DNA of 64,000 nucleotides, from NCBI GenBank assembly GCA_950097015.1, contig CATNEN010000033.1, positions 3,968,001 to 4,032,000 on the forward strand, read 5' to 3'. The position numbers and the translations under genes are program-made. The notes beneath the pieces were generated by a model. That model saw nothing but the letters and a program-made list of their open reading frames with translations, did not search any database and was not told where the DNA came from. Of this stretch, positions 35,517 through 59,500 are shown piece after piece (position 1 is the first letter of the stretch; every line of letters starts with the position of its first letter). Origin of the DNA: Macrostomum hystrix. Its lineage: Eukaryota; Animalia; Platyhelminthes.

Positions 35517-38500
35517 ACTCCTGGCCTCTCTGGGATTCGAAAGAGTGGACTAGACTGATCCCAGTGTAAAATATCCCCCCAGCCATTGGCAAATCAGTCG
35601 GCAGAAATCATGCAAATTTGCCTTAATTGTCTTAACTGCCTGCCGCTGCCGTCCACTCTGCTTGACTGCCCCTCGCCCTCCCCTACTCTATCCCGTGTAG
35701 TGAAAGTGGGAAAGTTAATTTTCTGCGTCACAGATGATGAGTGAGGCAGTGTTTTGGCATTGTGCCGCTATCAATTCGTTCCTCATGGGACTGGGTTTGG
35801 ATAGCCGTCATTGCGTTTCTCATTTATAATATTTTATTTGTGCCAACTGTGCGCTATAGTGGAGGCTGTGGGTCTTGGTGCTGCAAACTCATTTTTCAGT
35901 TTTTTTCTTGCCTAAGAAACATTTCAGACTTTATAATGCAAAAAAGTAATTTGTTATCTGCTAATTAGCTACTTTGGTGCCTGTTGATTATAAATAAACA
36001 TAATTTAACAAATAATAGTAAAGTGAGAAAATACTCGTACATAAACTGTTCTACGGCAGTAATCATTGAAAAGCAGTTTTAGACCGATAAATATTAATCC
36101 TCACATTGGTTACATAATCGAATAATTATTCTAACTGTCCTTACCGAACAAACAATTTCAACAGTAAATCAACTTCTTAGCTATTACCTGGTGACAGTTC
36201 TTAACAATGAAACTAGCTTTTTGTCTGCTTTTGCAACACATTTATTGTCACTGTCGAGAGGTCGTGACAACCCAGCCTGTTTACAATGCCTTGACACGTG
36301 TGTCAGAAGTGTGTCCCGTGGCATTTATTTGCTCAATTTGACTATAGTTGCCAATTGTATAGTTTCTTTATGAGGCTGACAATTCAACAGTAAAAAGCTT
36401 TTATATTGCTTGTAAATAATCTATTTTGTTTCTTATTTAAAGTCATTCTGTTTTACAATATCACAAGTTTTCGCAACCTATTTACCTACGAGAAAAATTT
36501 TAGCTTTTACGTTGACAACCCCACGTTCGATAAGCAGCTGGATGTCTTTTCTCTCTTTGTCATCAAAGTTAACTTCCGGATTCTTACACCACAGGATTCT
36601 GACTAGAGACAATACAGTCAGATTACAGGTAGCTTTACCAGGTGAACTGCCTGGTGACATTGCAGTCAGATTACAGGTAGCTTTACCAGGTGAACTGACT
36701 GGTGACATTGCAGTCAGATTACAGGTAGCTTTACCAGGTGAACTGACTGGTGACATTGCAGTCAGATTACAGGTAGCTTTAACAGGTGAACTGCCTGGTG
36801 ACATTGCAGTCAGATTACAGGTAGCTTTACCAGGTGAACTGACTGGTGACATTGCAGTCAGATTACAGGTAGGTTTATCAGGTGAACTGCCTGGTGACAT
36901 TGCAGTCAGATTACAGGTAGCTTTACCAGGTGAACTGACTGGTGACATTGCAGTCAGATTACAGGTAGCTTTACCAGGTGAACTGACTGGTGACATTGCA
37001 GTCAGATTACAGGTAGCTTTACCAAGTGAACTGACTGGTGACATTGCAGTCAGATTACAGGTAGCTTTACCAGGTGAACTGACTGGTGACATTGCAGTCA
37101 GATTACAGGTAGCTTTACCAGGTGAACTGACTGGTGACATTGCAGTCAGATTACAGGTAGCTTTACCAGGTGAACTGACTGGTGACATTGCAGTCAGATT
37201 ACAGGTAGCTTTAACAGGTGAACTGCCTGGTGACATTGCAGTCAGATTACAGGTAGCTTTACCAGGTGAACTGACTGGTGACATTGCAGTCAGATTACAG
37301 GTAGGTTTATCAGGTGAACTGCCTGGTGACATTGCAGTCAGATTACAGGTAGCTTTACCAGGTGAACTGACTGGTGACATTGCAGTCAGATTACAGGTAG
37401 CTTTACCAGGTGAACTGACTGGTGACATTGCAGTCAGATTACAGGTAGCTTTACCAAGTGAACTGACTGGTGACATTGCAGTCAGATTACAGGTAGCTTT
37501 ACCAGGTGAACTGCCTGGTGACATTGCAGTCAGATTACAGGTAGCTTTACCAGGTGAACTGACTGGTGACATTGCAGTCAGATTACAGGTAGCTTTACCA
37601 GGTGAACTGACTGGTGACATTGCAGTCAGATTACAGGTAGATTTACCAGGTGAACTGACTGGTGACATTGCAGTCAGATTACAGGTAGCTTTACCAGGTG
37701 AACTGACTGGTGACATTGCAGTCAGATTACAGGTAGCTTTACCAGGTGAACTGACTGGTGACATTGCAGTCAGATTACAGGTAGCTTTACCAGGTGAACT
37801 GCCTGGTGACATTGCAGTCAGATTACAGGTAGCTTTACCAGGTGAACTGACTGGTGACATTGCAGTCAGATTACAGGTAGCTTTACCAGGTGAACTGCCT
37901 GGTGACATTGCAGTCAGATTACAGGTAGCTTTACCAGGTAAACTGCCTGGTGACATTGCAGTCAGATTACAGGTAGCTTTACCAGGTGAACTGACTGGTG
38001 ACATTGCAGTCAGATTACAGGTAGCTTTACCAGGTGAACTGACTGGTGACATTGCAGTCAGATTACAGGTAGCTTTACCAGGTGAACTGACTGGTGACAT
38101 TGCAGTCAGATTACAGGTAGCTTTACCAGGTGAACTGACTGGAGACAATACAGTCAGATTACAGGTAGCTTTACCAGGTGAACTGACTGGTGACATTGCA
38201 GTCAGATTACAGGTAGGTTTATCAGGTGAACTGACTGGTGACATTGCAGTCAGATTACAGGTAGCTTTACCAGGTGAACTGACTGGTGACATTGCAGTCA
38301 GATTACAGGTAGCTTTACCAGGTGAACTGACTGGTGACATTGCAGTCAGATTACAGGTAGCTTTACCAGGTGAACTGACTGGTGACATTGCAGTCAGATT
38401 ACAGGTAGCTTTACCAGGTGAACTGACTGGTGACATTGCAGTCAGATTACAGGTAGCTTTACCAGGTGAACTGACTGGAGACATTGCAGTCAGATTACAG

Positions 38501-41500
38501 GTAGCTTTACCAGGTGAACTGACTGGAGACAATACAGACAGATTACAGGTAGGTTTATCAGGTGAACTGCCTGGTGACATTGCAGTCAGATTACAGGTAG
38601 CTTTACCAGGTGAACTGACTGGTGACATTGCAGTCAGATTACAGGTAGCTTTACCAGGTGAACTGACTGGTGACATTGCAGTCAGATTACAGGTAGCTTT
38701 AACAGGTGAACTGACTGGTGACATTGCAGTCAGATTACAGGTAGCTTTACCAGGTGAACTGACTGGTGACATTGCAGTCAGATTACAGGTAGCTTTACCA
38801 GGTGAACTGACTGGTGACATTGCAGTCAGATTACAGGTAGCTTTACCAGGTGAACTGACTGGAGACAATACAGTCAGATTACAGGTAGCTTTACCAGGTG
38901 AACTGCCTGGTGACATTGCAGTCAGATTACAGGTAGCTTTACAAGGTGAACTGCCTGGTGACATTGCAGTCAGATTACAGGTAGCTTTACAAGGTGAACT
39001 GCCTGGTGACATTGCAGTCAGATTACAGGTAGCTTTACAAGGTGAACTGCCTGGTGACATTGCAGTCAGATTACAGGTAGCTTTACCAGGTGAGTCAGAT
39101 TACAGTCAGTCAGATTACAGGTAGGTTTATCAGGTGAGTCAGATTACCTGCAGTCAGATTACAGGTAGGTTCAAGTAGTATATCCTAATAAATCTGTGAG
39201 CACACAGAATCTTTGCCCTTCGCCCGAGGCGCAAATCGCTGATTTGAGTCCCCGCTGAGATTTCGCAAAATCTGCTAGTTTGAGCAGTTGCGCAATTCGT
39301 TGATGGAATATTTCACCCTGCCAGCGAATGCACAGGCCACAGATTTAACTGCTACACAATGAGCGTGCGCCTGTGTTTCCATTCTCCTGGTCTGCAGTAT
39401 GGGAGAATTATCCCCCCTTAGGGCGTTGCGAGGCTCATTCTGAAGAGTTTGGCCCCGCACTGATAATGATTTGTCAAATTTCGCCGACAATCACACGACA
39501 GTTGGAATAGCAGAAATCATTCGCCTCATTCGAAAACACCCTTCTCACAATCGGAATATAAATTGGCGAATCTATGAAAGACATGACAAATATCCCATGT
39601 TGGGATGCATGAAGTTTTTGAGTAAAAAATGATTTTGGGAAAACTTCTCCTAATCGACGCGTGGCCCAGGCGCGGTTGCTGGGCTGTAATGAAAGCCCAA
39701 CTCGCATTTCTTATTGTCCCGGCTATTACGTGACAATTGGAATTGAAATGATGATGAAGAATGCCATTGCGGCCTGCCCGCCCACCCAGCTTTTCAATCC
39801 TGACCTTTGCCACGCCCCCCTCAACTCTCTCGCCCTGGATGGGGCGGGGCTACGTCTACTCCCGATTGAGTGAGTGCTCTGTGCGTGGCAATAGGCTGAT
39901 CATTTAAAATCAGTGTCAACGTTTAGTTTTTCAAAAGCATTTATTTCCATAGATATAATCAGCAGTTTCTATGAAGCTTGTCATTGTCATCGACAGACAT
40001 CATCTAGTTGTCAATACGGGCATTGTCTTTTTGTTAAAAAAGAAAATACAATTTTACACCGCTATCTCACCTGTTGCCTGATGGTGCTGTCGAGTAGGCT
40101 GAGCGTTGCTATGACAAAATCCGTGGCTGGGCCGCCCTGGGAGCACTGCTCCAACTGTTGTTAGTGTTTTTCTGGCTTGTTACACGGTTGCTGCTGCTGG
40201 CTGGCTGGCTGTCTGTATTTCACATTCAATTTGTGTTCCCGCTCTTGCCACAATAGCAGCCAGTAATATCTTCTCTCGGTTTTTTTTCTCCCTAACTGAA
40301 TTGGCAGCGCAAGTGTCAGCCAGCTGTTTGGGACTTATCTGTAGCTTTGTCCCAGCTCTCACTCCTCACTCACTCTCTCCTAGTCTCTCTTTTTATTTAT
40401 TCTTATAAGTCGTTCTAACTTAACTCGACAAGCAGCTAGTTTTTTAGTTTTATTTCTTTCAATATATTTCATGCGAATAGCCAAAGTTACCGCAATGTAG
40501 CGCATCGTGATCCCTTAACTCCTGATATTATCCTCGCCGTTGCACAAGGTCTTCCCTTCGTTCTCTTCCCGCTCCAGAGTTCTGAGTTAAAAATTTGCAA
40601 TTCTGCACAATTTTTTTTCTGCGTCAAATTAAGAATTACTTTCTTTTCATTTTCTGGATTCTTCAATTTAATCGAAAATGGAGAATGCTAAATGTGACAA
40701 AAAATTGTTGGCAGTGAATAGAACTTTTTGCCTTGCAATTCTTATTTTTTTGCAAGTGACTTAATTTGCGGCGATTATATCAAGTTCCAGTTTTCAAAAT
40801 ATTGATTTACTTCTTTTAACAGAAGCTTCAGGTTTTTTAAGTGAAGCGTCAGCGTTTTCAAAGGAAGCTTCAGGGTTTTCAATTGAAGCTTCAGGGTTTT
40901 CAAAGGAAGCTTCAGAGTTTTCAACTGAAGCTTCAGCGTTTTCAAAGGAAGCTTCATAGATTTAAAATGAAGCTTCAGGGTTTTCAATTGAAGCTTCAGG
41001 GTTTTCAATTTGAAGCTTCAGGTTTCTAACTGTAGCTTCAGGGTTTTCAACTGAAGCTTCAGGTATTTTAAGTGAAGCTTTCATAGTCTAAAAATGCTCC
41101 AGGTTTTAAGAAAAAATATTTGTGTCAGGGTCTTGAAATGGAGTTTTAGCTTTTTAAAAAGCCACTTTGTGATTTTGAATTCCTTCCACTAATATTCCCG
41201 CTAGTACGGTCTCCATATTTCAGTGTCCACAGGAAGCTAACTGGTCACAACATTCACACATTCTGACAGTCACAGTTTAGCCTCACAGCTTGCGTATCAG
41301 AAATCGGATACCTTCACCGCCGTAAAACCTGCGACCCCTCACAATTAGGATTAAATAACTCGGGGTGGCGAGTCCTGGCTCACTGTGGCATGGCTGGCAT
41401 ATGGTTAGCGACATCTATAGTAAGCCGCATTGCGGTTAGCCATTCGCCCGCATCCCACACCCTTCAGTTCGTCCCGCATCCGAAACATAGATTACAACGG

Positions 41501-44500
41501 ACAAGATGTCCAACTAGGGTCAATTGGTTTTGATGTGAGGAGGGATTTAGTTTTGTTTTTCATAGCTGGCTCCATAATGGATGTGGTTACATCAGCAGCA
41601 GCAGCAGCAGCAGCAGTAGTAGCAGTCTTAGCCCTGCGGGTTCGCCGTGATGAACTGATGAAGCTGGGAATTAGAGTCATGAAACTGAGAGTGAGAATGC
41701 TGTTGCATCAGCTCCTTCGAGCCCCGAAGCGATGGGAAAGAGCTTTGAGTAGCGCGAGGCACCGCGGGATAATAGTCTCACTAATTAGCAGCGTGTGGGC
41801 CTGCCCTGCCTCAGTCTTGTCGCTCCGCATCTGCCCTTTCAAATGCGGATTTGAAATCCATTTCCTCAGCAGCTCTCAGACTTTAATCTCCCTTACCCCC
41901 AGCACAGAAAATATTTCCCAGTCGAGACTTCTTTAGAGATTTCTTAGAAAGCTAAATTGCCACCTGCCTCATACCTGTTTCAACCCCACCGCCAAGTCGT
42001 TAATGATACCATTCAATTATTACAACTTTCTGTCTGCTGATAGATGACTGCAGACCTCTTTCCCAAACCCCAAGAAGCTGGGACTCTCCGGCTAGGATAG
42101 ATTTTTTACGCTTCTATAAATGCATAGGTAATTAGACAGCGCTTTCATTTTTAATGGCATGTTCAGCTAATTATTGAGATGAGCCCGATTAGGGGATGAG
42201 CTGCTCTCAGTGAGCACTCACTTGAGTCTAATTGACTCTCCTTGGCCTTTGCTCTGTCGAGCGGTAAATTGCACCCCTCAACCCTTCTGAGGGCTTCTCT
42301 ACCTGCTTCTCTACCTGCTTCTCTACCTGCTTCTCTACCTGCTTCTCTACCTGCTTCTCTACCTGCTTCTCTACCTGCTTGTCTCTCTGCTTCCCTCCCT
42401 GCTTCTCTACCTGCTTCTCTACCTGCTTCTCTACCTGCTTCTCTACCTGCTTCTCTACCTGCTTGTCTCTCTGCTTCCCTCCCTGCTTCTCTACATGCTT
42501 CTCTACCTGCTTCTCTACCTGCTTGTCTCTCTGCTTCCCTCCCTGCTTCTCTACATGCTTCTCTACCTGCTTCTCTACCTGCTTGTCTCTCTGCTTCCCT
42601 CCCTGCTTCTCTACCTGCTTCTCTACCTGCTTCTCTCCCTGCTTGTCTCTGCTTCTCTACCTGCTTCTCTCCCTGCTTCTCTACTTGCTTCTTTTCAAAA
42701 TATTTTTGTTACTACAATTGTACTCATAGCTCGATGCAGACAAAAATTTTCCTAGAAACTGTTGTCACCAAGTAGAGTAGATTGTTTAGTTATTTGTAGA
42801 ATTTACCACTTTCCTAGCTACAAAAGAGTACTCAAACTATTACGGTACCAAGAAAGTTTCACGAATTCTAAAAAAATAGTTTCGCAAAAAAGTCCAACTG
42901 CAAAAATTCGCGACATTTAATAAAAATATCGAAAAACGCTTGTCGCCTACTTCGAGTACTTAAAGTAGTTAACTGTATAAGCAATTCAATAATTCCAGGA
43001 GGCCATTGCCTACGCCGCTCAGGAGAATCTGCGTCTAGCAGAAACACCCGAAGCTGCAGCGGTTGTTGCCATGGCAACCCAGGCTGCGCCGGAGAATCCA
43101 CTGCTCAGGCGACTCCCGGATCCCGTTCGCGAGGCCTTCGCGCCGCTGCGTCGCTCGCGCTACCAAGTGGTCGCCTTCATCGACTGGAGCGGCATCGCCC
43201 ACCCCATCTTCACGGCGGCCAGCGGGCCCGCCTGCGCCTTCTCGAACTGGCTGCACCTGTGGTGCCGGTTTCTTATCACGCAGGTAAGTTCAAAAGGTGT
43301 TCAAAAGGGGGCCGGTGGCAGAGCGGTTAACGCGTTTACCTCTTGCACCAATGTCCCTAAGCTCGATTCCGCGGCGAGGCCACATTCATTTGGGGCGCAG
43401 CCGCAAAGGGTGGACTTAGGGGCTTGTCGTGCAATATACGCCCTTAAGGGCCAAGCTCCTTGGCTTAGTGAAATGTACACTGCCTGACGATGAGATGAAG
43501 AGTTTTGCGTGTTGATCAGACACACGAAACTCCCACTTCTAGACAATGGGGAACAATTGCCTAGGAATTTATAACAGTCACGTGACACTTACTGCAGTTT
43601 CTTCTTCTTCCTTGATAGTGAGTTGTTTGTAGTCTTTGTCTTCTTTGTCTTCCTGGTAGCTGCTTGAGTTTGTCTGTTGGCCAATAAATGACGAGAGCGA
43701 ATCAGATTACTTTTCGGTTTCCTCGAGCTCGGAATTCACAATAGAAACGTGCGCCCTAGTGAACAATTGAAATCTCTCTTGTATATCTCTAATAGGTCCT
43801 CCTGGAGGGCGTCTTCTTCGTTACCTCCGAAAGATAACGGATAACTCAAATCAAATCAATCAATAATCCTCTAGGAATGTATCCTAGGAAACAAGGAGGC
43901 CTTTCTCAAATGTATCGACGATATGTGGCTCTCGTAAACTTAGTTCAATTCAACAACTATTGCTAGCAATAAATTACTCTGTCTAGTAAAGCGCTTACCA
44001 CTTGTCTTTCCCTCAGAGATGAGTCCTCTTCTTCGTAAGGTGTTTTGAAGTCCGGTGGACCGCTCCGAGTCTGAATTTTTAGCTCGGATTTTCGCTTGTA
44101 TTTATAGTAAAATTTTGGGGAAAAACCGGTTCTACTACCGGGTGTTTACATTGGGCATACATGTTTGCACAGTGAGGTCAGACTTGTTTGATCAGCTGCG
44201 TTTTGGGGGGTTTTCAGGTGAACATTACCATATTTGGAATATTGTGTAAATACAGGTGCAGAAACCGATGAGTCATGTTTGCTTCAAGTAAATACAGCTG
44301 TCGAGAACCAGTTCTCCGATTTCATGTCACATGACTTGTTTCTAAAAATAGCGCATGACTCATTCCTAAAAATAGATTAAACATTATAGCTAAGGTTTCC
44401 TTGTGACATTACTTTAAGTAGCGCGTTAAGTAAAAACGTATTTTACAACTCTCTACAATATCTCCCTTTTTTACGAAAAATTCGTCCCGAATTTATTCTT

Positions 44501-47500
44501 GAGAGGAAAAGAAAATGACTTAGCTTAACAATAATAAGATAACATCACGTATTGACAGTATTGTACAGTTCGCCATGAGTTACATATCATACATTGGCGG
44601 AGATTTCCACGGCACAAAGGACAGTTTTTTAATGGTTTTTTGTAGTGTGCGAGGCTTAAGCAAGAACCGCAAACATGGTGTTTATTGACACATATACATG
44701 GTAGTTTACATGAGAATTCTTCAAGACAGACAGGACAGTCCATGGTAGTGTTCGCGAAAATTGTGTGGGCGTTTGCAGAGAACAGAGGTTTTAGTCGCCT
44801 TTTACGACAAGCTTGAGAAGCTGTAGTGCTATTCTTAATCCCGGTCACTACACGGGTAACAATAAACGAGTAATTTAACGCGGGCGTAGGTTATACGTAT
44901 GAGTATTTGGTGGTGTGTTTGTGGTTTGTGTCTCGGCATGTGCTGTTGCAATGTGCTTGTTTGTTGTTTTTGTGTGGTCTGGATTCTGTAACGTTGGAAG
45001 GAATGTAGTGTCGTTAGTGATGCGTTTTAAACGTTGAATGTGAACGTAGAACTGAGGTTGATGTGGATCCTGGATATTTGCAAGGCGTGCTGTTGTCGCG
45101 GATATCAGTCCTGTTACACGGAAAGGTCCTTTGTATTTGAAAGCATGCTTGTGCGTATGCTGTGCCGGGTAGTGTAGGTAGACGATATCTCCTACTTGTA
45201 AGGTAGAAGCATGATTACTTGTTGTAGGTACGGTAGATTGGTTGTCGAGATTATGTTTTGCAATTTGCCATGCTAGGTGTAATTGAGAAGTGAACTTTTG
45301 TAGCGTCGTCGGCGTGTCAACATATTGAGATGGCAGTAATTTCTGAACTAATAGATTCGGTGGTTGAAAGTCTCGAGAGAACATCAGAAAGAATGGTGTG
45401 TTCTCTGTTGAACGATGAACTGCGCTATTGTAGGCCATTGTCACGGATTGTATGTAAATAATCCAATCTTCAGGTTGTTTGTAAACAAAGTGTGTCAGCA
45501 TTTCATGTAGATTTCTGTGAAATCTTTCGACGAGGTTTGCTTTTGGATTATATGTCGAAGTGAATATTTGTTGAATATTCAGTAGTTTGGCGGCCTGTTG
45601 AAATAATTGCGATGTGAACTGTGTACCATTGTCAGATGTTAGCGTCTTAGGAGTTCCGAATTTGCAGATAATTTCATTATAGAAGGCCATTGCAACTGTT
45701 GTCGCTGTGATGTCAGGTATCGGAATGGCAACGGCGAATTTCGAAAAAACATCCAAGGCTGTAAGAATGTAGTTGTAGTCGATAGAGTGTTGTCGAGCCG
45801 GTGGTAGTGGTCCGGTAATGTCAATTGACACTGTGTCCCATGTAGTTGTCTTCGGCACTGATTGGAATTCAGGTTTTTGTCGTCTTCCGATTTTTGTTGA
45901 AGCACATGAGTGACATTGTGTGCAGTACTTGCGAATGTCTAAATTCATTGTTGGCCAAAAATAGAACTGGGCGACTCTCTGGATTGTTTTCTTGGCGGAT
46001 AAGTGTCCTGCTAATGGACTATCATGGAGTTCGTGTAGGATCGCTGAACGGAATGTGTAGGGTAGGTACAGTCGCGGAATATTGTTGTACACCCAGTAGA
46101 GTGCGAGTTCTCTGAAAACTAGACTATTTTTGTGTTTTCGTAAGAATTGTTTTTCGATTTTTGTAAGTTCATTTTCCGTTTCTTCTGTATCTTCTTGTAT
46201 GGCTTTGTAAAAGGAATCGTCTTGTTGTGCTTTCAACAAGTCTTTTATGGTTGGAATTGGATGAACTGCATTGATCTCGTATGTTCTGGACAGTGCATCA
46301 GCGGCTTTATTCATTGGCCCTGGTTTGTAAACCAGGTGAAAGTTGTAGTCCTGTATTTTGAGGACCATTCGGATGAGTCTATTGTTCGTCTGTCCTTTTG
46401 TTTTAACAACGTGAGTCAGCGGTGCATAATCTGTGCGAATGATAGTTGGCAGTGGTGATCCATAGATGTAGTAATGGAATTGTCGAAGAGCAAACAGAAC
46501 AGCTAGTAGTTCTCGTTCAGTGGCTGACCATTTTGTTTCGTTTGGTCTTAGCGCTCTGCTGATGTAAGCAATCGGTTTTTCTTTCTTTGGTTCCATTTCC
46601 TGAAGTAGTACGGCTCCTAATCCGCTTCCTGATGCGTCTGTTTCTATGATAAAAGGTTTGTGGAAGTTCGGGTGTTTGAGAAGAGCATCACTAGTTAGTT
46701 GCTGTTTGATTCTATCGAAACTTTCCTGTTGTTCCGCTTTCCAGTTGTCTTCTTTCCACTTTGGAATTTTTAGTAGTTCGTACAATGGTTTAGCCGTTTG
46801 TGCAAAGTTAGGTAGGAATTTTCGGAAATATTGTGCTAGTCCAAGGAATGACTGCAGTTTGGTAATTGACGTAGGTTTCGGGAACTTCTTGACCTTGTCG
46901 ACGTTATTTGGGTCAGGTGATATGCCTCGTGATGAGACGTGATGTCCAAGATATCGGACCGAATCTCTGCAGAATTTACATTTTGTTGGTTGCAGTTTTA
47001 GACCTTGTTGTCGGAGTAAGAAGAGAGCTTGTTCCATGACTTTTACTAGTTGTTCAAAGTTATTTCCAAAGGCAAGAATATCATCAACATAGTGAAGCAG
47101 ATTTGTACATCCGGCTAGCATATAGGCTGTAAGACGGCTCATTGTTGCTGGTGAGTTGGAGATTCCCATTGGACTTCTCTGATACGCGAAAACTTCTCCT
47201 TTGTAAGTTTTGAAGGCAGTGTATTGTTTTGATTCTTCTTCAAGTTCGATTTGCCAGAATCCATGTCGTAGGTCAAATACGGTGAAGAGTGTCGCCGTAT
47301 TGAGTCGTGCTAGCAGTTCTGAGATTTTTGGTAGACTTTGTTGATCGGTGGGAATGTACTTATTTAGGACTCGGAAATCACAGACGAGTCGTCTTTCGTT
47401 TGTTTCTTTCTTTTCGACAAGAAGGCAAGGTGAAGAATAAGCTGAGACGGTACGTTTTATGATTCCTGCTTTAAGCATTTTTTCTATGATTTCATCGAAG

Positions 47501-50500
47501 TGTTGCTGTAGGTGTTTAGCGACTGGATATGGTTTACATTGGATTGGTTCTTGATGAGGTAGCAGTTCAATTTTTTGCTTGATATCTCGAGCACATCCGA
47601 TGTCGTAATCGTGATGACAGAAGACGTCGTTATACTTCCACAATAGATCTTTAACTTGTGTTTTTTGTCCTTCAGTGATTGGACTTTGAGAAAGATCAAT
47701 TTGTTGTAGGAATTTTTGTTTAGACATTTTTGTTGTTGTGTCTGGTTGGATGAGCATTACCGAAGCTTGTGTGTTGAGATGTCCCATGCATGTTCCTGCA
47801 TAAATTTTTACTGGATGTTGATTTGGATTTATAATTTGTACTGGGATGTTTCTTTCCTTTGTGATAAGGACTAGAGCCGTTGGTATTAAAACTTCTTTTG
47901 TTGTGAGGATCTTCTTTCTTGGTTCAAATATCATAGCTTCTTCGACATCGTCATGATTGGCGAGATATGCTTTAACCCAACATGTACTTTCCGGCTGTAT
48001 GAAGACATCTTGTTTAATATGTACTTTTGGTTGAAGGTGAACTTGGCTGACTAAAGGATGTTCCACATTGTCCAGTTTGAATGTTTGTTTGTTAAAATCA
48101 AATGTTAATGGTAGATTCATCTGCCGAAATGTGTCGATTCCAATAATAACATCTTGGCTTGGAAGATGGTCAATAACAAATGCTTGTACCAGAAGTTGCT
48201 TGTTTGCAAGTTTAAGTGATATATTCACTTGTCCTAGGATATTAAGTGCATGTCCTCCGGCTCCAGCGACAGCGATTGAAGAAGGTCGCATATGAAGTTG
48301 CAATTTGTCGTAGAGTCTTTTTGTGATGACTGTGATTGAACTTCCTGAGTCGAGAAGTGCTTTACTGGGCATGTTGTTTATAAATACTTGAGCCATCGCT
48401 CTACCCATATTGGCTTGCAAGGTGCAAATGTAATTTGCTGGCCATTTTGGATCCGTTGGTAGAGGAGGAGATTTCGGCGGTGGTCTCGCTGTTCTGATTT
48501 CAATTTTTGGGTAAATATTTGATGCTTCTGGTTCTGGTGCTGTTGGCAATAATTGTTTTCTTTGATCTTGTAGTAGAGTTTCTTCAATTTTTTCGTTGAG
48601 TGTAGTAGTTTCTTGTTGTTTGTCAATTTGGAAAATCCGTTGTTTTGCTGGATAGGCTCGTGCTACACATCGTACTACTGTGATAAAGATCATTAGTGCA
48701 AGGTGAATCCATACAATGCATGCACTGGAGAAGATGAATCCCTGATAGTAACTTCCTTTTCCTTGGAGTAAATCGAGAAAGCTATTCGACCAAAAGGATC
48801 CTATTGCGTTATGTATGATGAATCCTGTCGAAAAGGATTGTTCTTTGTCCTGCTGGTTGTGTTGGGTAAAGAGCTTGTTCATCATCTGTCGTTGGGCGAT
48901 AAAAACTTGAAGAAAATCATTAATTGTCCATCCTGGTGTAATTTCGTCAAGTTTGATGTCACCAAATGGTTTATAGGTGGTCTTATTTATCTTGAGCTGT
49001 AGGTCCGATAGTTCGTATGTTTCGTCGATAATAGCTTGCATACCAGTGATGTTTGTAATGTGCCCAGTTGTTGAGACCTTGTGTAGTTTATTATTAATGT
49101 TGAAATAGTTGGCTGCGTCAGTGCAGGGTCTCGGGATTGCAGTTCCAACAATTATATTGTGCACAGTATCTAGAAATCCTTGAATTCGTTTCCCATTGTA
49201 GTAAGCTTCGATTCTGGGTTTATCGTAGCACGTAGTTGATGTGTTTGATGGCAAGATATTAAAATGATGCAGTGGCACACATTTGTAAATCAACAGATGG
49301 CCAGAGATGGGGATAGCTAAAGCATCTTGAATCCCTGTGATTTTTCTGAATGTAGACGTTGGATTGACATAATAGTTTTGTCGTGCATAGTTAAGTGCAG
49401 TTTCGTGCATTCTACAAGTCAGTTGGATCAGTGATTTGTGCAAGTAGTTTAGTTCTTTATGTAGGTTATGTTCCATTGCTGCGAGTTTTGCCGCTAGTAG
49501 TCGTGCAGAAACCATTGATGGTCTTTGTAGTTCTCTCTTTTTCCGAGCTGTGTTGGTTCTTGTTGAATAAGTACCATTGACCAGTCTCATAAAGGTATCC
49601 TCATCCATATCACGTAATTCGAGCGGTATCTCTTGTTCAGACACTAGAAGTTTTTTAGAGTTCTCCTTGCAGTTAATTTGGAGATACTTGGCTTTTTTTG
49701 GAAAAGTTAGGGCAAAATCCGACGTACTCGCAAGGAAGGTATTTGACAGTAGACTTCCTTTTATTGTATGGTACTTCTGGAATTTACAATCAATATTCGG
49801 TTCAACTTTCCATGCAACGAAGTACTGTCGTTGGTATTCTGTAATCTCATAGTATGGGCTGTGTCGATGTTCAATTTGCCATCTGTAATTTTGATGATAT
49901 GTTGGAGCCAGCGGTACTTGCCATACTGCTTCGTTCCAGAGTTTTGCTGTTTCGCAGAACCCTGTGTTGTACTTGCAATCTTCCATTGATAATTGTAGAG
50001 ATTCCATGTTTTCAAATGGATTGTGGTAAAACAAGACTTTCCGGATCAAGTAACTGTTTGTCGTGGTGTAACGTGGCCATATGTATTCGTTCCAATGGAC
50101 ATATCTACCGCTCGCACTGTTCTTGGTTCTGAAGAGTTGAGAGTTTCCAATTTTTTCATCGGCATGAAGTTCTCCATCTTTAGAAAATAATGTTTGGTTC
50201 CACTGAAGGCATTCTTCTTGTGTGACAGGCAGTGCTGTTTGCCAGAATCGGATGCGATTCCATTGGATGTACCAAACCTTTTCTAGTTCATGTTTATCTC
50301 GGAAACAGATAATACCATATTGTCTATGTTTCTTTGTGTTTGCTTTGTAGACATCGATCGTTAATGGAATAGGTTTTGTTTGATTAGTTTTAAAGTAACT
50401 GCACTTGATTTCCGTTGGTATTTTGTAGATGACTGGTTGGATGTTGGCATCAGTAGGACATATCATGGGCACTGAAGATGGTACAACTGTCGGGAGAAGT

Positions 50501-53500
50501 AACATCACGATGGCTGAAAACAACCATCTTATCAGTATGTGCCGTTTCTTTTTCTTCACTTTGGTTGGTGTTGTCGGTTTATTGGTGTTTATTGAGTATC
50601 GTTGGTCTTCTGTCTCTCCAATTGGTGGAGTAAGGCGCATAGAAAAGTGCCATGGGTTGTTGCATCCTGATGGTCTGGTTTGTTGGTTATACCAGGTTGG
50701 TTGTTTCATATTGAATGTTAATGGTGTATTGAGAGTTTGCAGTACGGTACTTGTAGTATCCGTTCTCATGTCGATCCACGTTGTTGGTTCATCATAGATA
50801 TGATCATCATCATTTTCCATCGACGTATTGTAGTCACTTTTAGTCTGAGAAGATCTATCGTGCTTCGAGTAGTATGATTCGGTATTCACTGCTTTATCGT
50901 GTCCATTCTGTCCTTCAGATGAATTGACATGGGTTATGTTTTCGTATTCGGGATCAGGTTTGTACTTGGGTGTCGAAGGCGGTGTCTCTGTCAAGTCGAT
51001 GTCATCGACTAAAATTTGTAACATGCTGATGTTTTCTTCAGACGTGTTGTGTGAATTTTTCGCACTGTGTTCCTCATTATTCCTTTCTGTGGATGTGGAC
51101 AATTCATCTATGCCTTCTTTGTTTTGCAGAATTTTTGAAAGATCACTCATCGTTGGAATTTTGAATAATCCTTTGATTTGTTGTTGTAATTGTTTTCGTT
51201 CAATGTGTTGACAGGTGTTGAAGGCAACACTTTCTCTTGGCGAGGGAATCGATAATTCTTCAAACAATGAACCCATTATGCAGCTGCTGTCGTTGCTTGT
51301 GTTGTCGTTCTGTATTTCCTGTGTTGACTCATTGTTGTAGTAAAAATTGTTTTCTTCTGTATCCTCTGTTTCCTTTTGTGGCATGGGCGGCTCTTTCGAA
51401 TGGTCGCTTTCGATTATAGTAATATAGGCTGCACCATCGTTGTCCAGATGAAGGTCATTGATTTCTTGCTCCTTCTTTTGTTTCTCAAGTTCATCAAGAA
51501 CATTGACAGAAAAGTCTGGCATAAGATCTTCAATCTTGAACTTTGGTTCAATAGTTTGAGTGTATTCAGGCTCAATAGCTTGAGTGTATTGTCGACGGAC
51601 TTGCGTTGGTTGTCTTGGAGGTGGAGGATTTCTTTGTTGACGATAAGGTACGATGGCATTAGATGGTCTGCTATCTTGTTGTCGACTATTTGTCCAATTA
51701 CGGTTTGAAGGCTGTCTTGGAGGATGAGTCCAATTGGTCTGTCTATTGTCATTGTACGAACGTGGGTTGCCACGTGATCTGCAGTCTCTAGCATAATGAC
51801 CGATCCTTCCACAGGTATAGCAAGTTGATGTGTGCAAGTATCTCTGTTGTGGTTGTGGATAGGAATATCTCTGCTGTTGTGGTACAATAGCAGAAGTTTG
51901 GTGTTGCTGCATGAGTTTGCTTAATTGTTCTGCCAGTTGTGTCGTGTCACTATTATGAGTAGTCATAAGAGGTGCGCTAGCTTCCCATTGCATTCCACAA
52001 CGGAGCAATTGTTCCTCTGTGTTAATAGTTTCTCTCAGCAGTCTATCTCGCAAAGTAGGCTGTGCGTTGTTAATCACATGAAGTATTAAACTTTGTTCCC
52101 GGTCTTCAAGACGTTGTCTTTCTCGTGCAGCTGATTCGGCAGGTCCTATAGGTTGCGCTCCTTGATCCAATGGTGGAGGCTGATGTAATGCTTTGATGAT
52201 CTTACGGATGTCATCAACAAAGGTGAGAAAACTCTCAGTGGGACTCATTTTTCGATTATGAAGTTTATGAAGGAGTACCGATCTGTTTGTTCCACATCGT
52301 GCGAATTGTGCTCTCAGTTGGGTAACTAGAGCTTGATAATCTTGTTGTACTGCAGCTGTCAATTTTCCATAGATTTCTCGAGCTGTTCCTTGTAACAGTG
52401 GAGGTAGGAGGAGTGCTTTCTCTGCATTCTGTAATCCATATTCGCGTGAGACCAAATCAAAGTGATCAATGAATGTGTTGAAATCTTTATCCATTGTATA
52501 CATTCCGACCGTTTCCTTAATGTCACGATGGACCTGATAGTTTCTTCGTGCCATATTCGCAACTGGGAACGGAAATAATTCAAGTTCTGGATCGATGTTC
52601 AAGGGTTCGTCCAGATTGACTTCTCTGACAAGATTTAGTGTGAATAAAAAGTGTGTGTGTGTGCGTGTGCGTGTGTATCAGCAAATTGAAAATGGTTTAC
52701 ACAGAGGAATTATTTACTCAGGACAAGGGAGAAAAATTTATACAAAGCAGGGAACGTATGCCGCTTTTAACGCTGAAAAGGGGTTATTGAAATGTGAGCC
52801 GGTGAGTTCAGTCGCGCGATTCCCAGATGTGCAAACAATAGAGCGAAGTGACGCGTGTGGCTTATGTGCAAACAATATCCGGTAGGGACAGCAAAAATTT
52901 TTCAGAGGTATGACGCAACAAAATTTTTATGAAACGGTGGATCAAGGGCAATAATGATGAGTTGCAAAAAATGGTTTCTTTTTACTTTTTTGTTAAAACG
53001 ATTCGAAAGTTGTAACGCAAAAAATTTTAGTATCTCGGCCTGGGCTTGATTGCAGGGCCTGGGCTTGATTGCAGGGCCTGGGCGAGATCACCAGTTGAAG
53101 AGTTTTGCGTGTTGATCAGACACACGAAACTCCCACTTCTAGACAATGGGGAACAATTGCCTAGGAATTTATAACAGTCACGTGACACTTACTGCAGTTT
53201 CTTCTTCTTCCTTGATAGTGAGTTGTTTGTAGTCTTTGTCTTCTTTGTCTTCCTGGTAGCTGCTTGAGTTTGTCTGTTGGCCAATAAATGACGAGAGCGA
53301 ATCAGATTACTTTTCGGTTTCCTCGAGCTCGGAATTCACAATAGAAACGTGCGCCCTAGTGAACAATTGAAATCTCTCTTGTATATCTCTAATAGGTCCT
53401 CCTGGAGGGCGTCTTCTTCGTTACCTCCGAAAGATAACGGATAACTCAAATCAAATCAATCAATAATCCTCTAGGAATGTATCCTAGGAAACAAGGAGGC

Positions 53501-56500
53501 CTTTCTCAAATGTATCGACGATATGTGGCTCTCGTAAACTTAGTTCAATTCAACAACTATTGCTAGCAATAAATTACTCTGTCTAGTAAAGCGCTTACCA
53601 CTTGTCTTTCCCTCAGAGATGAGTCCTCTTCTTCGTAAGGTGTTTTGAAGTCCGGTGGACCGCTCCGAGTCTGAATTTTTAGCTCGGATTTTCGCTTGTA
53701 TTTATAGTAAAATTTTGGGGAAAAACCGGTTCTACTACCGGGTGTTTACATTGGGCATACATGTTTGCACAGTGAGGTCAGACTTGTTTGATCAGCTGCG
53801 TTTTGGGGGGTTTTCAGGTGAACATTACCATATTTGGAATATTGTGTAAATACAGGTGCAGAAACCGATGAGTCATGTTTGCTTCAAGTAAATACAGCTG
53901 TCGAGAACCAGTTCTCCGATTTCATGTCACATGACTTGTTTCTAAAAATAGCGCATGACTCATTCCTAAAAATAGATTAAACATTATAGCTAAGGTTTCC
54001 TTGTGACATTACTTTAAGTAGCGCGTTAAGTAAAAACGTATTTTACAACTCTCTACAGAGAAAGTCAGGGCTGATGTACACACCTGTGTGAGCGTGTGCC
54101 TGCGTACAGTATCTGTGTGCGTGTGTGCTCAGGAGTCAGCGAAATGGGTAGAATTGCCTCCTCGCTGGCTGCGGGTCTAGTGTCACCAAATGATGTGCCA
54201 TTGCCCACAGCCCTCCTGCGATTATTATTTGATATAATTATAATTTTTATTATTATTATCAATTTTATTATTAATATTACAGAGAGTTCTAATTTTAGCT
54301 CAAGGGAAGCTAGTTGTGTCTTTGGACAAGAAAATGACCCATTGCTTGCTCTCACCCAGCTGTAAAATGTGTACCAGCATCAGCTGGGGAAGAAATTTAG
54401 GTCCACGTACTGGACAGCTGTACACAGCCTTTTGGTGTGGGATTTCAAGGAAATCTTCAAGCTTGCTGCGCTTCTCCCCTCAGATCGAGGATTGCCGCAT
54501 CTCGGCCATGGTGAAGCCATGCGAGGCTCTGCTTCACGAGGACCGGGCCGACACCGCCTTCGCAGCCTTCCTGCTGCCGCAGCTCATTCTGCAGCTTGTC
54601 ATGGAGGGCCGGCCAGAGAAGTGCCGCCTGGTGAGTCGCCCCTCTGGCCTGACCCCACTGACTCCCACCGACAGTAGCCCGTTTCCTGCCGGTCTTAATC
54701 TTCGTCCGTTTCCTCAATGGTCTCTTCGTCCGTTTCCTCAATGGTCTCTTCGTCCGTTTCCTCAATGGTCTCTTCGTCCGTTTCCTCAATGGTCTCTTCG
54801 TCCGTTTCCTCAATGGTCTCTTCGTCCGTTTCCTCAATGGTCTCTTCGTCCGTTTCCTCAATGGTCTCTTCGTCCGTTTCCTCAATGGTCTCTTCGTCCG
54901 TTTCCTCAATGGTCTCTTCGTCCGTTTCCTCAATGGTCTCTTCGTCCGTTTCCTCAATGGTCTCTTCGTCCGTTTCCTCAATGGTCTCTTCGTCCGTTTC
55001 CTTAATGGTCTCTTCGTCCGTTTCCTCAATGGTCTCTTCGTCCGTTTCCTCAATGGTCTCTTCGTCCGTTTCCTCAATGGTCTCTTCGTCCGTTTCCTCA
55101 ATGGTCTCTTCGTCCGTTTCCTCAATGGTCTCTTCGTCCGTTTCCTCAATGGTCTCTTCGTCCGTTTCCTCAATGGTCTCTTCGTCCGTTTCCTCAATTG
55201 TCTCTTTGAAGGGTTTTTTAGTCCGGTTCCCTCATTGCTTCACCTATTCTCCAGATCAAGGAGGAGATGCTGGCGGTGCTGAACTCGGTGGTGTCGGACC
55301 GGCCGGACGGCCTTCTGTCGGACAATCAGCTCTCCAAACAGACCGGGTCGGCGGGAGAGCAGCCGCAGCTGGACCGGGCCAACCTGTTCGCCCAGACTGT
55401 CTTCTCTATTATCGACTTCTTCTACGGCTGGACTCGGCAGCATTTGAACCAGCTGAAGGCGGCTGCGGCTGCGGCGGCTTCGTCCGCAGCAGCGACAACA
55501 GCGACTGCGGCCAAGGGCGAGGCCAACCATGAGAGCTACAGGCGGGCCTGCCAGTTCCTGGCCGACGTGCCGCAGACTCTGCTGGCAAGGGCGGCGTACA
55601 GCTGCCGGGCGGACACCAGGGCGCTGCGGCACTGGGAGCTGGCGCATCGGGAGCAGCCGCCCGAGCTGCGCAGGGCCTCGCTCAGGACAATGGCTCAGGT
55701 TTGGGCGCCTTGATAATCCACGGTGTGGGATAATTCAAGGTGTGAGATAATCCAAGCTGTGGGATAATCCAAGCTGTGGGATAATCCAAGCTGTGGGATA
55801 ATCCAAGCTGTGGGATAATCCAAGCTGCGGGATAATCCAAGCTGTGGGATAATCCAAGGTGTCGGATAATCCAAGCTGTGGGATAATCCATGGTGAGGGA
55901 TAATCCAAGATGTGGGATAATCCAAGGTGAGGGATAATCCAAGATGTAGGATTATCCAAGGCGTGGGATAACCCAAGGTGAGGGATAATCCTGGGATAAT
56001 GGTGTCAGAGCAGTTTATGCTGTGTAAACTTGCATCACATTCTCACCATGACTGCCCGTCCCAACCCGCCGGCCCGCAGGTGTACACCTCCTTGGGCGAA
56101 TCGGATGCCGTTGCCGGCGTCTTCGCCTGCCTGTCCGGCCGGGACCTGGATATCCGATCCCGCATCCTGCGGCTGGAGAACTCCGGCCAGCTGCCGCAGG
56201 CTCTGGTTGCCTACGACGTGGCGATTCGTTCCGAGGCCGGCAGAGACGACCTGGCGCTGCACCTGGGCCTGCTCCGCTGTGAGCTGGACAGCGCCAGCCT
56301 GCTCAATGCCGTCCAGAAGGCCGACTGGTTCCTCAGGCGCCGGCCGGACTGGGCGCCGCAGTTGAACTCCGTGCGGGCCGAGGCGCTGTGCAAGCTGGGA
56401 CAGTGGCAGCAGCTGCGGTCCGTTGTGCCCTGCGACAGCTGGGAAACCGACAGGGGTCAGGCTGGACACGTGAGACTGCCTTTCATACCTGTTGGTCATT

Positions 56501-59500
56501 CTCATACCTCTTGGTCATTCTCATACCTCTTGGTCATTCTCATACCTGTTGGTAATTCTCATACCTGTTGGTCATTCTCATACCTGTTAGTCATTCTCAT
56601 ACCTGTTGGTCATTCTCATACCTGTTGGTCATTCTCATACCTGTTGATCCTTCTCACTACTATTAGATACACTATCAGACCTGTCAATACACTCTCACAC
56701 CTGTCAGTCAATCATCTCCATTCCCCAACAGCCGGGCGCCAGCTGGCAAATCGGTGTTGGCCGCATCTTCAGCTCGCTGCACGAACGCAACGTCGCCAGC
56801 AGTCGCCGGGCCCTCGTTGACCTGGCCGCAGCCCAGGTGCCAGCGCTGGCCGCCGCAGCCATGGAGCCCGGCTGCTACGAGCGGGCCTACCCCACCCTGT
56901 GCCGCCTGCACGCCCTGGCTGAGCTTCAGGCCGGCCTCGACTGGATCGACAGCGCTGGCAGCGACTCCGCGGCTGCCACCACCGACCGCCTGCTGATGGC
57001 CTGGGACCAGCGGCTCAGCCTGCTAGCGCCCAGCTTCTCGGCGCAGGACACCGTGCTGTCCTGCCGACTGGGCTTCGCCAGGCTGGCAGCCGATGCTGCC
57101 GCAGCCGCTGGCGGGGTGAGAAACTGCCAATCAACTGAGGGATTTTTTAATAGCAGGAGAAGGAGTCAAGGTGTGTCAGGAGGAGTCAATGTATGTCAGG
57201 AGGAGTCAAGGTGTGTCAGGAGGAGTCAAGGTGTGTCAGGAGGAGTCAAGGTTTGTCAGGAGGAGTCAAGGTGTGTCAGGAGGAGTCAAGGTGTGTCAGG
57301 AGGAGTCAAGGTGTGTCAGGAGGAGTCAAGGTGTGTCAGGAGGAGTCAAGGTGTGTCAGGAGGAGTCAAGGTGTGTCAGGAGGAGTCAAGGTGTGTCAGG
57401 AGGAGTCAGGGTTGTCAGGTTGAGCAAAAATTCACCGCAAAAGCGCATGGCTGCTTACGTCCCCTGACGGGGTCGGTGGCAGAGTGGTTAACGCGTTTGC
57501 CTCTCGCACCAATGTCCCTAAGTTCGATTCCGCGGCGAGGCCACATTTATTCGGGGCGCAGCCGCTGAGAGAAGGCTTCGGGGCTTGTCGTGCAATTTAC
57601 GCCCTTGAGGGCCAACCTCCAAGGCACAGTGAGAGTGTACACTGCCTGAAGTCAGAAACCTGCGTACGGTATCTGTGTGCGTGTGTGCTCAGGAGTCAGC
57701 GAAATGGGAGGAATTGTCTCCTCGCTTTAAGTGTCACCAAATGATGTGCCAGCAGCCCTCCTGAAATTGCTGTTATTTTTATTACCTGTCCTCCCCCATC
57801 CTTCACAGCTTTCATCGTCGACTTCTTCGACATCTTCCGCCACCGCGGCCGCTACCGCTGCCGCTGCCGCCGCCGCCACCGCCGCCGCTTCGGACGCACT
57901 TCGCCGCGACTGGCGCCGCGCCGTCCAGGCGCACCTGCTGCGCCGCATCCGCTCAGCCCGACTCTGCGGTCGACTGGCCGCCGCTCAGGCGGCCCTACTG
58001 GAGGCCGAGCAGCTGCAGCCGCTGCCCGATGTAGGCGGTGGCAGCGGCGTAGCGGGCGGTGGCGGCGGCGGCAGCGGTGCTGGCAGCATTCTCGATTTGA
58101 CCGCCCGACTGACCGCCGAGTCCGCTAAACTGCAGTGGGAGCTGGGCCGACGGGACCAGGTGAGGCGCTGGGACTTCAAATAGGGATGGAATCTGGCATC
58201 TGATTCCCCCATTTAATCGGATATCTGATAGGGAGCAGAATGAAAAAAATGAAGATCGGATCTGAGAATCCAAGATGGGATTTGAGAATCCAAGATGGGA
58301 TTTGAGAATCCAAGATGGGATTTGAGAATCCATGATGGGGTGTCAGAATCCATGATGGGATTTGAGAATCCAAGATGGGATTTGAGAATCCAAGATGGGA
58401 TTTGAGAATCCATGATGGGATTTAAGAATCCATGATGGGATGTCAGAATCCATGATGCGATCAGAAAATCCAAGATGGGATTTGAGAATCCACGATGGGA
58501 TTTAAGAATCCATGATGGGATGTCAGAATCCATGATGCGATCAGAAAATCCAAGATGGGGTTTTTTAGAATTTTGTCTGCATCGGGGCGGAAACGAGCCA
58601 CACAGAACTGCCCTGCCCACGCATCAGGCTCTCGCAACTCTCGAGGCCCACGCCCGGTTGATCGGCGACGGCGCCTCAGGCGGCCAGTCCGCGGCCAGCT
58701 TCCGCCGGCTCCAGCTGCTCCGGGCCAAGTATTCGTACACCGCGGGCCGGCTGCACAATCACGACCTGTCGCGCCTGTTCCAGCAGGCCATCTCGGCCGG
58801 CAGGGCGCACGAGGCCTGCCACTTTCACTACGCCCAGTTCCTGGACGAAGCCACGCAGAAGGAGCTGGGCGCTGAGCACATGGCGCTGATGCTGCGCACT
58901 GTGGAGCAGTACAGTCGGGCGCTGCAGTGCGGCAGCAAGTACGTCTACCACAGCGCCTCCCGCATGCTGTCACTCTGGCTGGAGCTGGCCGCCCAGGTGG
59001 CCGCCAATCCGAACGGCTCCGCAGCGGACTCGATGTCGCAGCGAAATAGCCAGGTCAGGAAGCGCAACCTGGACAAGCTGAACGCCAACCTCACCGTGCA
59101 GCTGGCCCGGGTGCCCAGCTACCAGTTCTATGCCGTGTTCTCCCAGCTGGTGTCCCGCTTGGCCCACTCGCACAAGGAGACCGTAGCCATACTGCAGGAC
59201 CTCATTGCCTCCGTGGTTGCGGCCTACCCGCATCAAAGCCTCTGGTGGCTGCTGCCTGCAGCCAGGGCTGCCGACTCGCAGGTCAGGCGCCAGCGGTGCC
59301 AGGCCATCTTCGCGTCCGCCTCCAAGAAGACCGCAAACTCACATATGGTAGGACTGCCGTGGGATTAGGGTGGGATCTGTGTGGATTGGGATGGGAACTA
59401 TGGGGATTGGGATGGGATCTATGGGGATTGGGATGGGATCTATGGGGATTGGGATGGGATCTATGGGGATTGAGGTGGGATCTGTGGGGATTGGGGTGGG

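Follow-up and report, generated by a model that had tools for sequence, protein, structure and literature searches.

How does a retrotransposon make an envelope protein when the envelope gene stands, in frame, between gag and the protease? The question is raised by an intact Ty3/gypsy element with long terminal repeats (LTRs), located on the minus strand of a 64,000-nucleotide stretch of the flatworm Macrostomum hystrix (contig CATNEN010000033.1, positions 3,968,001 to 4,032,000), the whole of which is referred to below as the window. The LTR pair flanks a single stop-free open reading frame (ORF) of 2,559 amino acids (aa) from its ATG, or 2,600 aa from stop to stop. It encodes, in this order, a capsid-like Gag, a CCHC zinc knuckle, a polar linker, a basic and hydrophobic signal, a class III ectodomain with a furin site, a transmembrane (TM) segment, a tail, and then protease (PR), reverse transcriptase (RT), RNase H (RH) and integrase (IN) (table 1). 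The original prediction, made from the sequence of the window, of one continuous frame from Gag to integrase with Env in between agrees with the ORF, Pfam and motif evidence. The locus is almost certainly a GAG-ENV-POL gypsy element. The explanation that we favor, with reasonable though not high confidence, is an intact young Ty3/gypsy element in which one ORF joins Gag, a class III Env and Pol, is threaded through the membrane and carries late domains in the Env tail.

In detail, the Pfam scan of the whole ORF recognized zf-CCHC (aa 244-259), aspartyl protease (1385-1483), RVT_1 (1714-1873), RNase H (1938-2070), the IN zinc finger (2165-2221) and rve (2242-2337), with no match between aa 260 and 1385. 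The Pol order PR-RT-RH-IN, with an HHCC zinc finger and a GPY/F motif in the integrase, is that of the Metaviridae. So are the LTRs of 962 bp each with TG...CA ends, the 4-bp target-site duplication (TSD), the primer-binding site (PBS) and the polypurine tract (PPT). The insertion is young, since its two LTRs are 100% identical. The LTRs, TSD, PBS and PPT were not mentioned in the original prediction, nor was a small RING-like ORF in the 3′ untranslated region (UTR). The model of Gag (predicted local distance difference test, pLDDT, 84) gave weak structure matches (best E=0.02, none at E<=0.001), every listed one of which is Arc or a retroviral capsid. Its N-terminus reads MARR, with no glycine at position 2.

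Table 1. Features of the Macrostomum hystrix GAG-ENV-POL element, in window coordinates
Feature	Position	Strand	Basis or remark
Upstream TSD copy, 4 bp	54058..54061	.	LTR analysis and contig joint
5′ LTR, 962 bp, TG...CA, TATA-like TATAAATA at 53706	53096..54057	-	identical to 3′ LTR
PBS TGGTGATCTCGC, 2 nt inside the 5′ LTR end	53082..53093	-	12-mer and offset as in Mlig_errantivirus_2
Gag-Env-Pol ORF, 2,559 aa	44875..52554	-	
Capsid-like Gag, aa 1-220, all-helical, without Gly2 myristoylation site	51895..52554	-	model; alignable to P0013
CCHC zinc knuckle, aa 245-258	51781..51822	-	Pfam and motif
Polar linker, aa 266-666, T/N/S/E/P-rich, without hydrophobic segment	50557..51759	-	
KKKKR plus hydrophobic internal signal, aa 667-695, predicted N-cytosolic/C-luminal	50470..50556	-	
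Predicted class III fusion glycoprotein ectodomain, aa 696-1272, 12 Cys, 6 N-glycosylation sequons	48739..50469	-	
Furin-type RKKR, aa 1004-1007	49534-49545	-	
TM helix, aa 1273-1294, predicted stop-transfer	48673..48738	-	
Predicted cytosolic tail, aa 1295-1375, with PTAP (48535-48546) and IYPKI (YPKI 48502-48513)	48430..48672	-	
Aspartyl protease, aa 1385-1483, LLDSG at 1400	48106..48402	-	Pfam and motif
Conserved PR-RT spacer, aa 1491-1600	47755..48084	-	54% identical to P0011
RT core, aa 1714-1873, YVDD at 1822	46936..47415	-	Pfam and motif
RNase H, aa 1938-2070	46345..46743	-	Pfam
Integrase: HHCC zinc finger, rve core, GPF motif at aa 2476	44878..46062	-	Pfam and motif
RING-finger-like accessory ORF, 72 aa, in 3′ UTR	44525..44743	-	
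PPT	44462..44472	-	
3′ LTR, 962 bp	43496..44457	-	
Downstream TSD copy, 4 bp	43492..43495	.	

An assembly artefact as the source of the fusion is rejected, as the step from Gag to Env is covered by contigs of two studies. Contigs were examined from four of the eight public runs (two studies) that contain the stretch. X2:14, X4:20 and X6:27 span the border between the Gag linker and Env, the last two with 0 gaps; X2:14 covers 49767-52942, and X1:3 runs through TM, tail and PR with 0 gaps. No indel inside the ORF appears among the differences shown (there are 29 further ones), and a few low-depth contigs have gaps. Third codon positions account for 13 of the 21 listed ORF differences (p=0.007; the best-supported ones only, with 180 others), a figure not used as support. 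The window holds one copy of the element; the presence of the stretch in 8 runs of 2 studies says nothing of copy number, of which contig depth is no measure.

The segment between linker and tail had been described as a Cys-rich glycoprotein, and its class can now be given. Scanned alone, the ectodomain (aa 696-1270) scores 27.8 bits (E=8e-7) with Pfam PF24664, Monjiviricetes_fusion, just above the cut-off of 27; PF24664 gives no match when the whole ORF is scanned. A single-sequence search of the PDB with Env returned 0 matches and a profile alone succeeded: built from 40 sequences, it matches glycoprotein B (gB) of Epstein-Barr virus (EBV; 3fvc) at E=4e-14. The AlphaFold2 (AF2) monomer model of the ectodomain (pLDDT 79; predicted template modeling score, pTM, 0.53) matches herpesvirus gB in the PDB (E=1.9e-21, template modeling score about 0.46). 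It also matches glycoproteins of nyami-, rhabdo-like and chu-like viruses, and nyamivirus G is among the top viral folds. The ESM Atlas returned class III glycoprotein clusters, all matches <0.9, which are taken as a lead only. By profile and model, the Env segment is a class III fusion glycoprotein resembling gB and nyamivirus G.

The nearest of the named relatives are proteins of Macrostomum lignano, among them one of a sister family, labeled P0011 (PAA64473). Between it and the window's protein, Env is 62-64% identical and protease and integrase are 70% and 68% identical; the tail (25%) and the signal (28%) are far less alike. All 12 ectodomain cysteines and all 6 sequons are kept, and so is the furin site, as RRRR. 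An identity far above that of the tail, together with the retention of cysteines, sequons and furin site, indicates that Env is under selection. In another M. lignano protein, P0014 (PAA86625), a long Thr/Ser/Pro-rich mucin-like insert was observed in Env (aa ~1010-1180) between two furin-type sites.

The fusion itself was followed with a HMMER search using the ectodomain, which gave 75 matches at E<=0.001, many of them fragments; together with P0011 and the window's own protein 77 were examined, and P0088 and P0089 were dropped as near-duplicates of P0014. PR was scored by motif and checked with Pfam on 28 of the 75, mostly long matches. A CCHC knuckle precedes Env in frame in 26/77, Env-TM-PR is found in 20/77, and all three stand in one frame in 10/77, the window's protein being counted each time; of the 75 matches alone, 9 have the full CCHC-Env-TM-PR series. 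Retention of the fusion in relatives, a check named in the original prediction, was thereby observed. P0011 has signal-Env-TM-tail-PR-RT-RH-IN in one frame, P0014 is a full-length version of 2,852 aa, and P0013 joins Gag, CCHC, linker, signal and Env before a short contig ends it, with a polar linker about half as long as that of the window element. Nematode proteins are also among the Env matches. By these comparisons, the in-frame Env fusion is conserved across families.

RT-RNase H identity to the window is 82% in P0011 and 32% in the nematode protein P0083, and P0003 is 67% identical over 1,497 aa. A tree of 9 Env-bearing proteins, without GyDB reference, groups the window with the M. lignano P0011 and P0014 (100/99). 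The exact protein of the window was not found in the protein collection searched, and word-based protein searches returned only the P0003 cluster. Some Env-bearing polyproteins have two protease-like motifs, both after Env in P0020 and P0022 and one on each side in P0028.

The novelty of this gene order, which the original prediction implied, fails because the in-frame order is already in print. Arkhipova and Yushenova (GBE 2019; PMC6431247) place an in-frame env between gag and pol in the planarian Burro, and Chary and Hayashi (eLife 2026; PMC13524379) list, for Nematoda, Bryozoa and Platyhelminthes, gypsy elements of the order GAG-ENV-POL whose ENV is of gB type. In Burro and GYPSM1 of Schmidtea and Dugesia the ORFs run to 4,873-5,140 aa, contain 2-3 knuckles and carry BIR, BCL2, MATH, Ubl and ankyrin as cargo. 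The window element, on the contrary, is compact: it has one knuckle, its linker is plain, and its small RING-like ORF stands apart. At 2,559 aa and without Pfam matches to BIR, BCL2, MATH or ankyrin, it does not belong to Burro and is alike in layout only. At the place of its PR-RT spacer Burro has a dUTPase-like domain; the spacer gave no Pfam or PDB sequence match, and a dUTPase-like fold is not demonstrated. Nor is the element a classical insect errantivirus (gypsy, ZAM, Idefix), with an F-type env in an ORF of its own 3′ of pol: its env is of class III and precedes PR, and only the 72-aa ORF follows pol. Under the operational term of Chary and Hayashi, GAG-ENV-POL errantivirus of the HSV/gB type (HSV, herpes simplex virus), Gag, Env and Pol are intact in that order, with a gB-like class III ectodomain between a signal/TM segment and a TM.

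Within the table of PMC13524379 (1,512 elements), one M. lignano element is listed, Platyhelminthes_Rhabditophora_Mlig_errantivirus_2, with 16 copies. It shares with the window element the Ty3/gypsy Pol, the gB-type Env and the GAG-ENV-POL order. Its PBS 12-mer and 2-nt offset are identical to those of the window element, and it is the sole row of the table with that 12-mer. The LTR-to-LTR offsets are 9,727 and 9,600, a difference of 127 nt. Compared by PBS and LTR offset rather than by sequence, the two would belong to the same family or to sister families; supplement 2 of that paper shows Platyhelminthes sequences without the Env of the listed element. The window element is a new or already listed flatworm GAG-ENV-POL gB-type errantivirus with a published layout. 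The main text of PMC13524379 reports gene order, without processing, splicing or tail motifs: outside its figures, which may show ORF structure, it has 0 matches to wording on a fused single-ORF polyprotein, late domains, ESCRT, frameshifting or splicing. For nematodes, it cites Sacco et al. 2022 (J Gen Virol) on a metavirus in which ENV precedes POL and whose glycoprotein was taken from an RNA virus. The hosts of those elements are nematodes, unlike that of the window element. Their gag, env, pro and pol reportedly form one continuous ORF, and their glycoprotein is reported to be nyamivirus-like.

The M. lignano proteins P0003/P0012 (ALD16272/3), P0011 and P0014 show the same domain order and in-frame Env-Pol as the window element, with PTAP/PSAP and LYPx[LI] in their tails. 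They are of different families (the Env of P0014 is 29% identical) and are annotated without mention of Env. In the accessible text of a survey of LTR elements in M. lignano from 2025 (PMC12801592), 'env' and 'envelope' have 0 matches, and in the literature searched none was found that joins M. lignano, LTR retrotransposon and envelope.

How such a polyprotein would lie in the membrane was judged by hydropathy and flank charge. The KKKKR at aa 667, the furin site and the TM of the original prediction were all found, the TM at 48738-48673 as it had placed it. Hydrophobic segments lie at aa 673-691 and 1273-1294; no third strong TM is expected, since the best 19-aa hydropathy windows score 0.38 (linker) and 1.21 (ectodomain). 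The flank charges of the window's protein (signal +7/-1, TM 0/+4) are those expected for a cytosol-lumen-cytosol threading, which had been proposed, and the homologues agree: in 31/37 the signal carries more positive charge on its N-side, and in 35/40 the TM does so on its C-side. A small-x-small signal-peptidase pattern occurs in 34/37 homologous signals; the pattern is permissive and the windows unequal (16/40 TMs also have it), so it carries little weight.

A cytosolic tail behind the TM had also been foreseen; it is present, with about 80 aa up to the presumed PR start, instead of 90. The six short motifs proposed as cleavage sites are all in the ORF, and their support differs. The contexts of YICTL, SVMLI and INAV recur in both P0011 and P0014, as WPxxY..TL before PR, [AS/AT]V[MN][LT]I before RT and [IV]N[AT][VIL]HP before IN. 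In the linker, SVNVL aligns with EINTL of P0013, while YITII and ISML fall at P0013 gaps and are left without support.

In retroviruses the late domains PT/SAP, LYPxL and PPxY bind TSG101, ALIX and NEDD4-type ligases. PTAP (aa 1337) and YPx[LI] (aa 1348) occur once each in the 2,559 aa of the window's protein, both in the tail. LYPSI, PTAP and PPNY occur in the tail of P0011, only 25% identical, but not at the same positions, and the tail of P0014 has PSAP and LYPTL. The motifs were counted in 38 tails, excluding the two proteins in which they were first noticed, against 3000 shuffles that ignore kinship. A late-domain-like motif is present in 11/38 held-out tails against 2.1 expected, a count reached by 0/3000 shuffles. 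Taken separately, PT/SAP occurs in 4 against 0.31 and YPx[LI] in 7 against 1.1; PPxY, in 3 against 0.74 (114/3000 shuffles), is weak. The reversed-motif control gave 4 against 2.1 (485/3000). Among ten motif bearers looked up, one is from Haemonchus contortus. The pattern suggests that the Env tail, rather than Gag, may recruit the endosomal sorting complexes required for transport (ESCRT); that the motifs act as late domains is a possibility we rate a little below even. No report of late-domain motifs in such tails was found in the literature searched, which left aside subscription journals and figures. The tail late-domain-like motifs are the only new point of the present analysis.

These observations can be joined in one scheme. 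The whole ORF would be translated as one membrane-threaded polyprotein, and that this is the main product is probable. Gag would stay cytosolic, the ectodomain would enter the endoplasmic reticulum via the internal signal, and Pol would re-emerge behind the TM. Cleavage by signal peptidase would set Env free, with Gag still held by the signal stub, a likeness to the capsid anchor of flaviviruses, and furin would cut Env at RKKR. At the conserved sites the element's own protease would separate Gag from the linker and detach PR, RT and IN from the tail. PTAP and YPxI in the tail would recruit TSG101 and ALIX; enveloped particles would then bud and pass the genome between cells, with germline or stem cells as the probable targets. 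A wider version, in which GAG-ENV-POL budding has been rewired around Env (Gag held by the signal stub instead of a myristoylated matrix, Pol carried by the tail without a frameshift) and the late domains PTAP/PSAP, LYPxL and PPxY, found in Gag in retroviruses, have arisen repeatedly in the Env tail in flatworm and nematode lineages, is put forward tentatively and is rather doubtful. Neither the window's protein nor P0003 or P0011 has a 2A/StopGo motif. The ORF holds 15 slippery-type heptamers, a raw count without comparison to chance.

Several points weigh against this scheme. Making Gag and Pol in equal amounts suits capsid assembly poorly and demands a correcting step, of which none was seen here. 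The window's own signal fails the small-x-small pattern. Among the homologous tails, 12/40 stop <=130 aa past the TM without PR, at contig ends or true stops, and 27 of the 38 held-out tails have no late-domain-like motif. The Gag-Env linkers are mildly enriched too (4/24 against 0.92; 29/3000 shuffles). The shuffle test is blind to relatedness, although identity in the Env C-region is just 9-36% among the bearers, the pair of the window and P0011 apart. YPKI matches the YxxPhi type of sorting signal as well, a type common in glycoprotein tails. The pTM of the ectodomain model is only 0.53, and the processing steps are predictions from sequence.

The alternative that fares best, unlikely as we hold it, also starts from one polyprotein. 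The protease would free Gag and Pol at once in the cytosol, where capsids would form as in Ty3 and Tf1 and surplus Pol would be degraded; Env would travel alone by its YxxPhi signal and later envelop capsids or fuse neighboring cells, with no tethering of Pol. Protease-site-like motifs are conserved on both cytosolic sides of Env, which would make such an early release possible, and a linker of 30 to 462 aa among 25 proteins suggests a loose spacer. Tf1 corrects a 1:1 ratio of Gag to Pol by degradation. On the other hand, PTAP/PSAP and PPxY are no sorting signals, and PTAP/PSAP is enriched in the tails (4/38 against 0.31). The signal segment is the sole membrane anchor seen for Gag, and a retroviral-type protease normally needs dimerization, favored by concentration at a membrane, which also counts against an early release in the cytosol.

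The single ORF may instead be a genomic layout only, although this is distinctly less likely still: spliced, trans-spliced or early-terminated RNAs would give Gag or Gag-Pol without Env and drive retrotransposition, the full polyprotein being a minor product. Such RNAs would solve the problem of stoichiometry. Drosophila copia has a subgenomic gag RNA, and one is described in the single-ORF copia-type element BARE. However, P0003/P0012, P0011 and P0014 keep Env joined to Pol as annotated, perhaps without an RNA basis, and the fact that many lineages stay in frame over two fast-changing junctions suggests the use of read-through translation. Finally, an Env that is a captured viral gene tolerated in frame and no longer used for entry, in an element moving only inside cells, is very improbable, even though Chary and Hayashi call the entry mechanism of gB-type errantiviruses unknown, as Env is conserved about as well as protease and integrase and keeps all its cysteines, sequons and the furin site.

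Membrane threading with late domains in the tail would bear on the question, held open by Chary and Hayashi 2026 (PMC13524379), of how gB-type errantiviruses spread between cells. The compact, intact and young copy, in what is probably a flatworm genus tractable in the laboratory, displays the minimal parts, and the tail motifs make budding of a Gag-Env-Pol polyprotein specifically and cheaply testable. If the late domains are active, the budding strategy would be distinct from those of retroviruses and insect errantiviruses.

The 72-aa ORF of the 3′ UTR is Cys/His-rich and matches zf-RING_2 at E=0.011, below the Pfam cut-off; no homologue of it was found, and it could be an accessory E3-ligase-like protein. 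Burro carries ubiquitin-pathway cargo. The 3′ region with this ORF differs at several places in contigs of other samples, and its extent may vary between copies. In the 5′ LTR region no heat-shock element of canonical type was seen, and no tRNA gene matching the PBS lies within the window. The 5′ UTR just inside the PBS (53019-53080) consists of 19-nt tandem units, one of which is missing in contigs of 4/4 runs, and 52942-53019 differs from contigs in 3 of the four.

The element is inserted into a very abundant host repeat (43308-43495 and 54058-54220), and a contig joint 43491->54058 omits 10,566 nt, that is, the element and one TSD. By eye, the repeat has tRNA-like A-box and B-box motifs and is SINE-like (short interspersed element); an uninterrupted second copy lies at ~57469-57760, 3.4 kb from the element. 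The remainder of the window is rich in minisatellite arrays with units of 12-48 nt (e.g., 36416-39124, 42221-42734 and 54579-55326), which produce long spurious ORFs.

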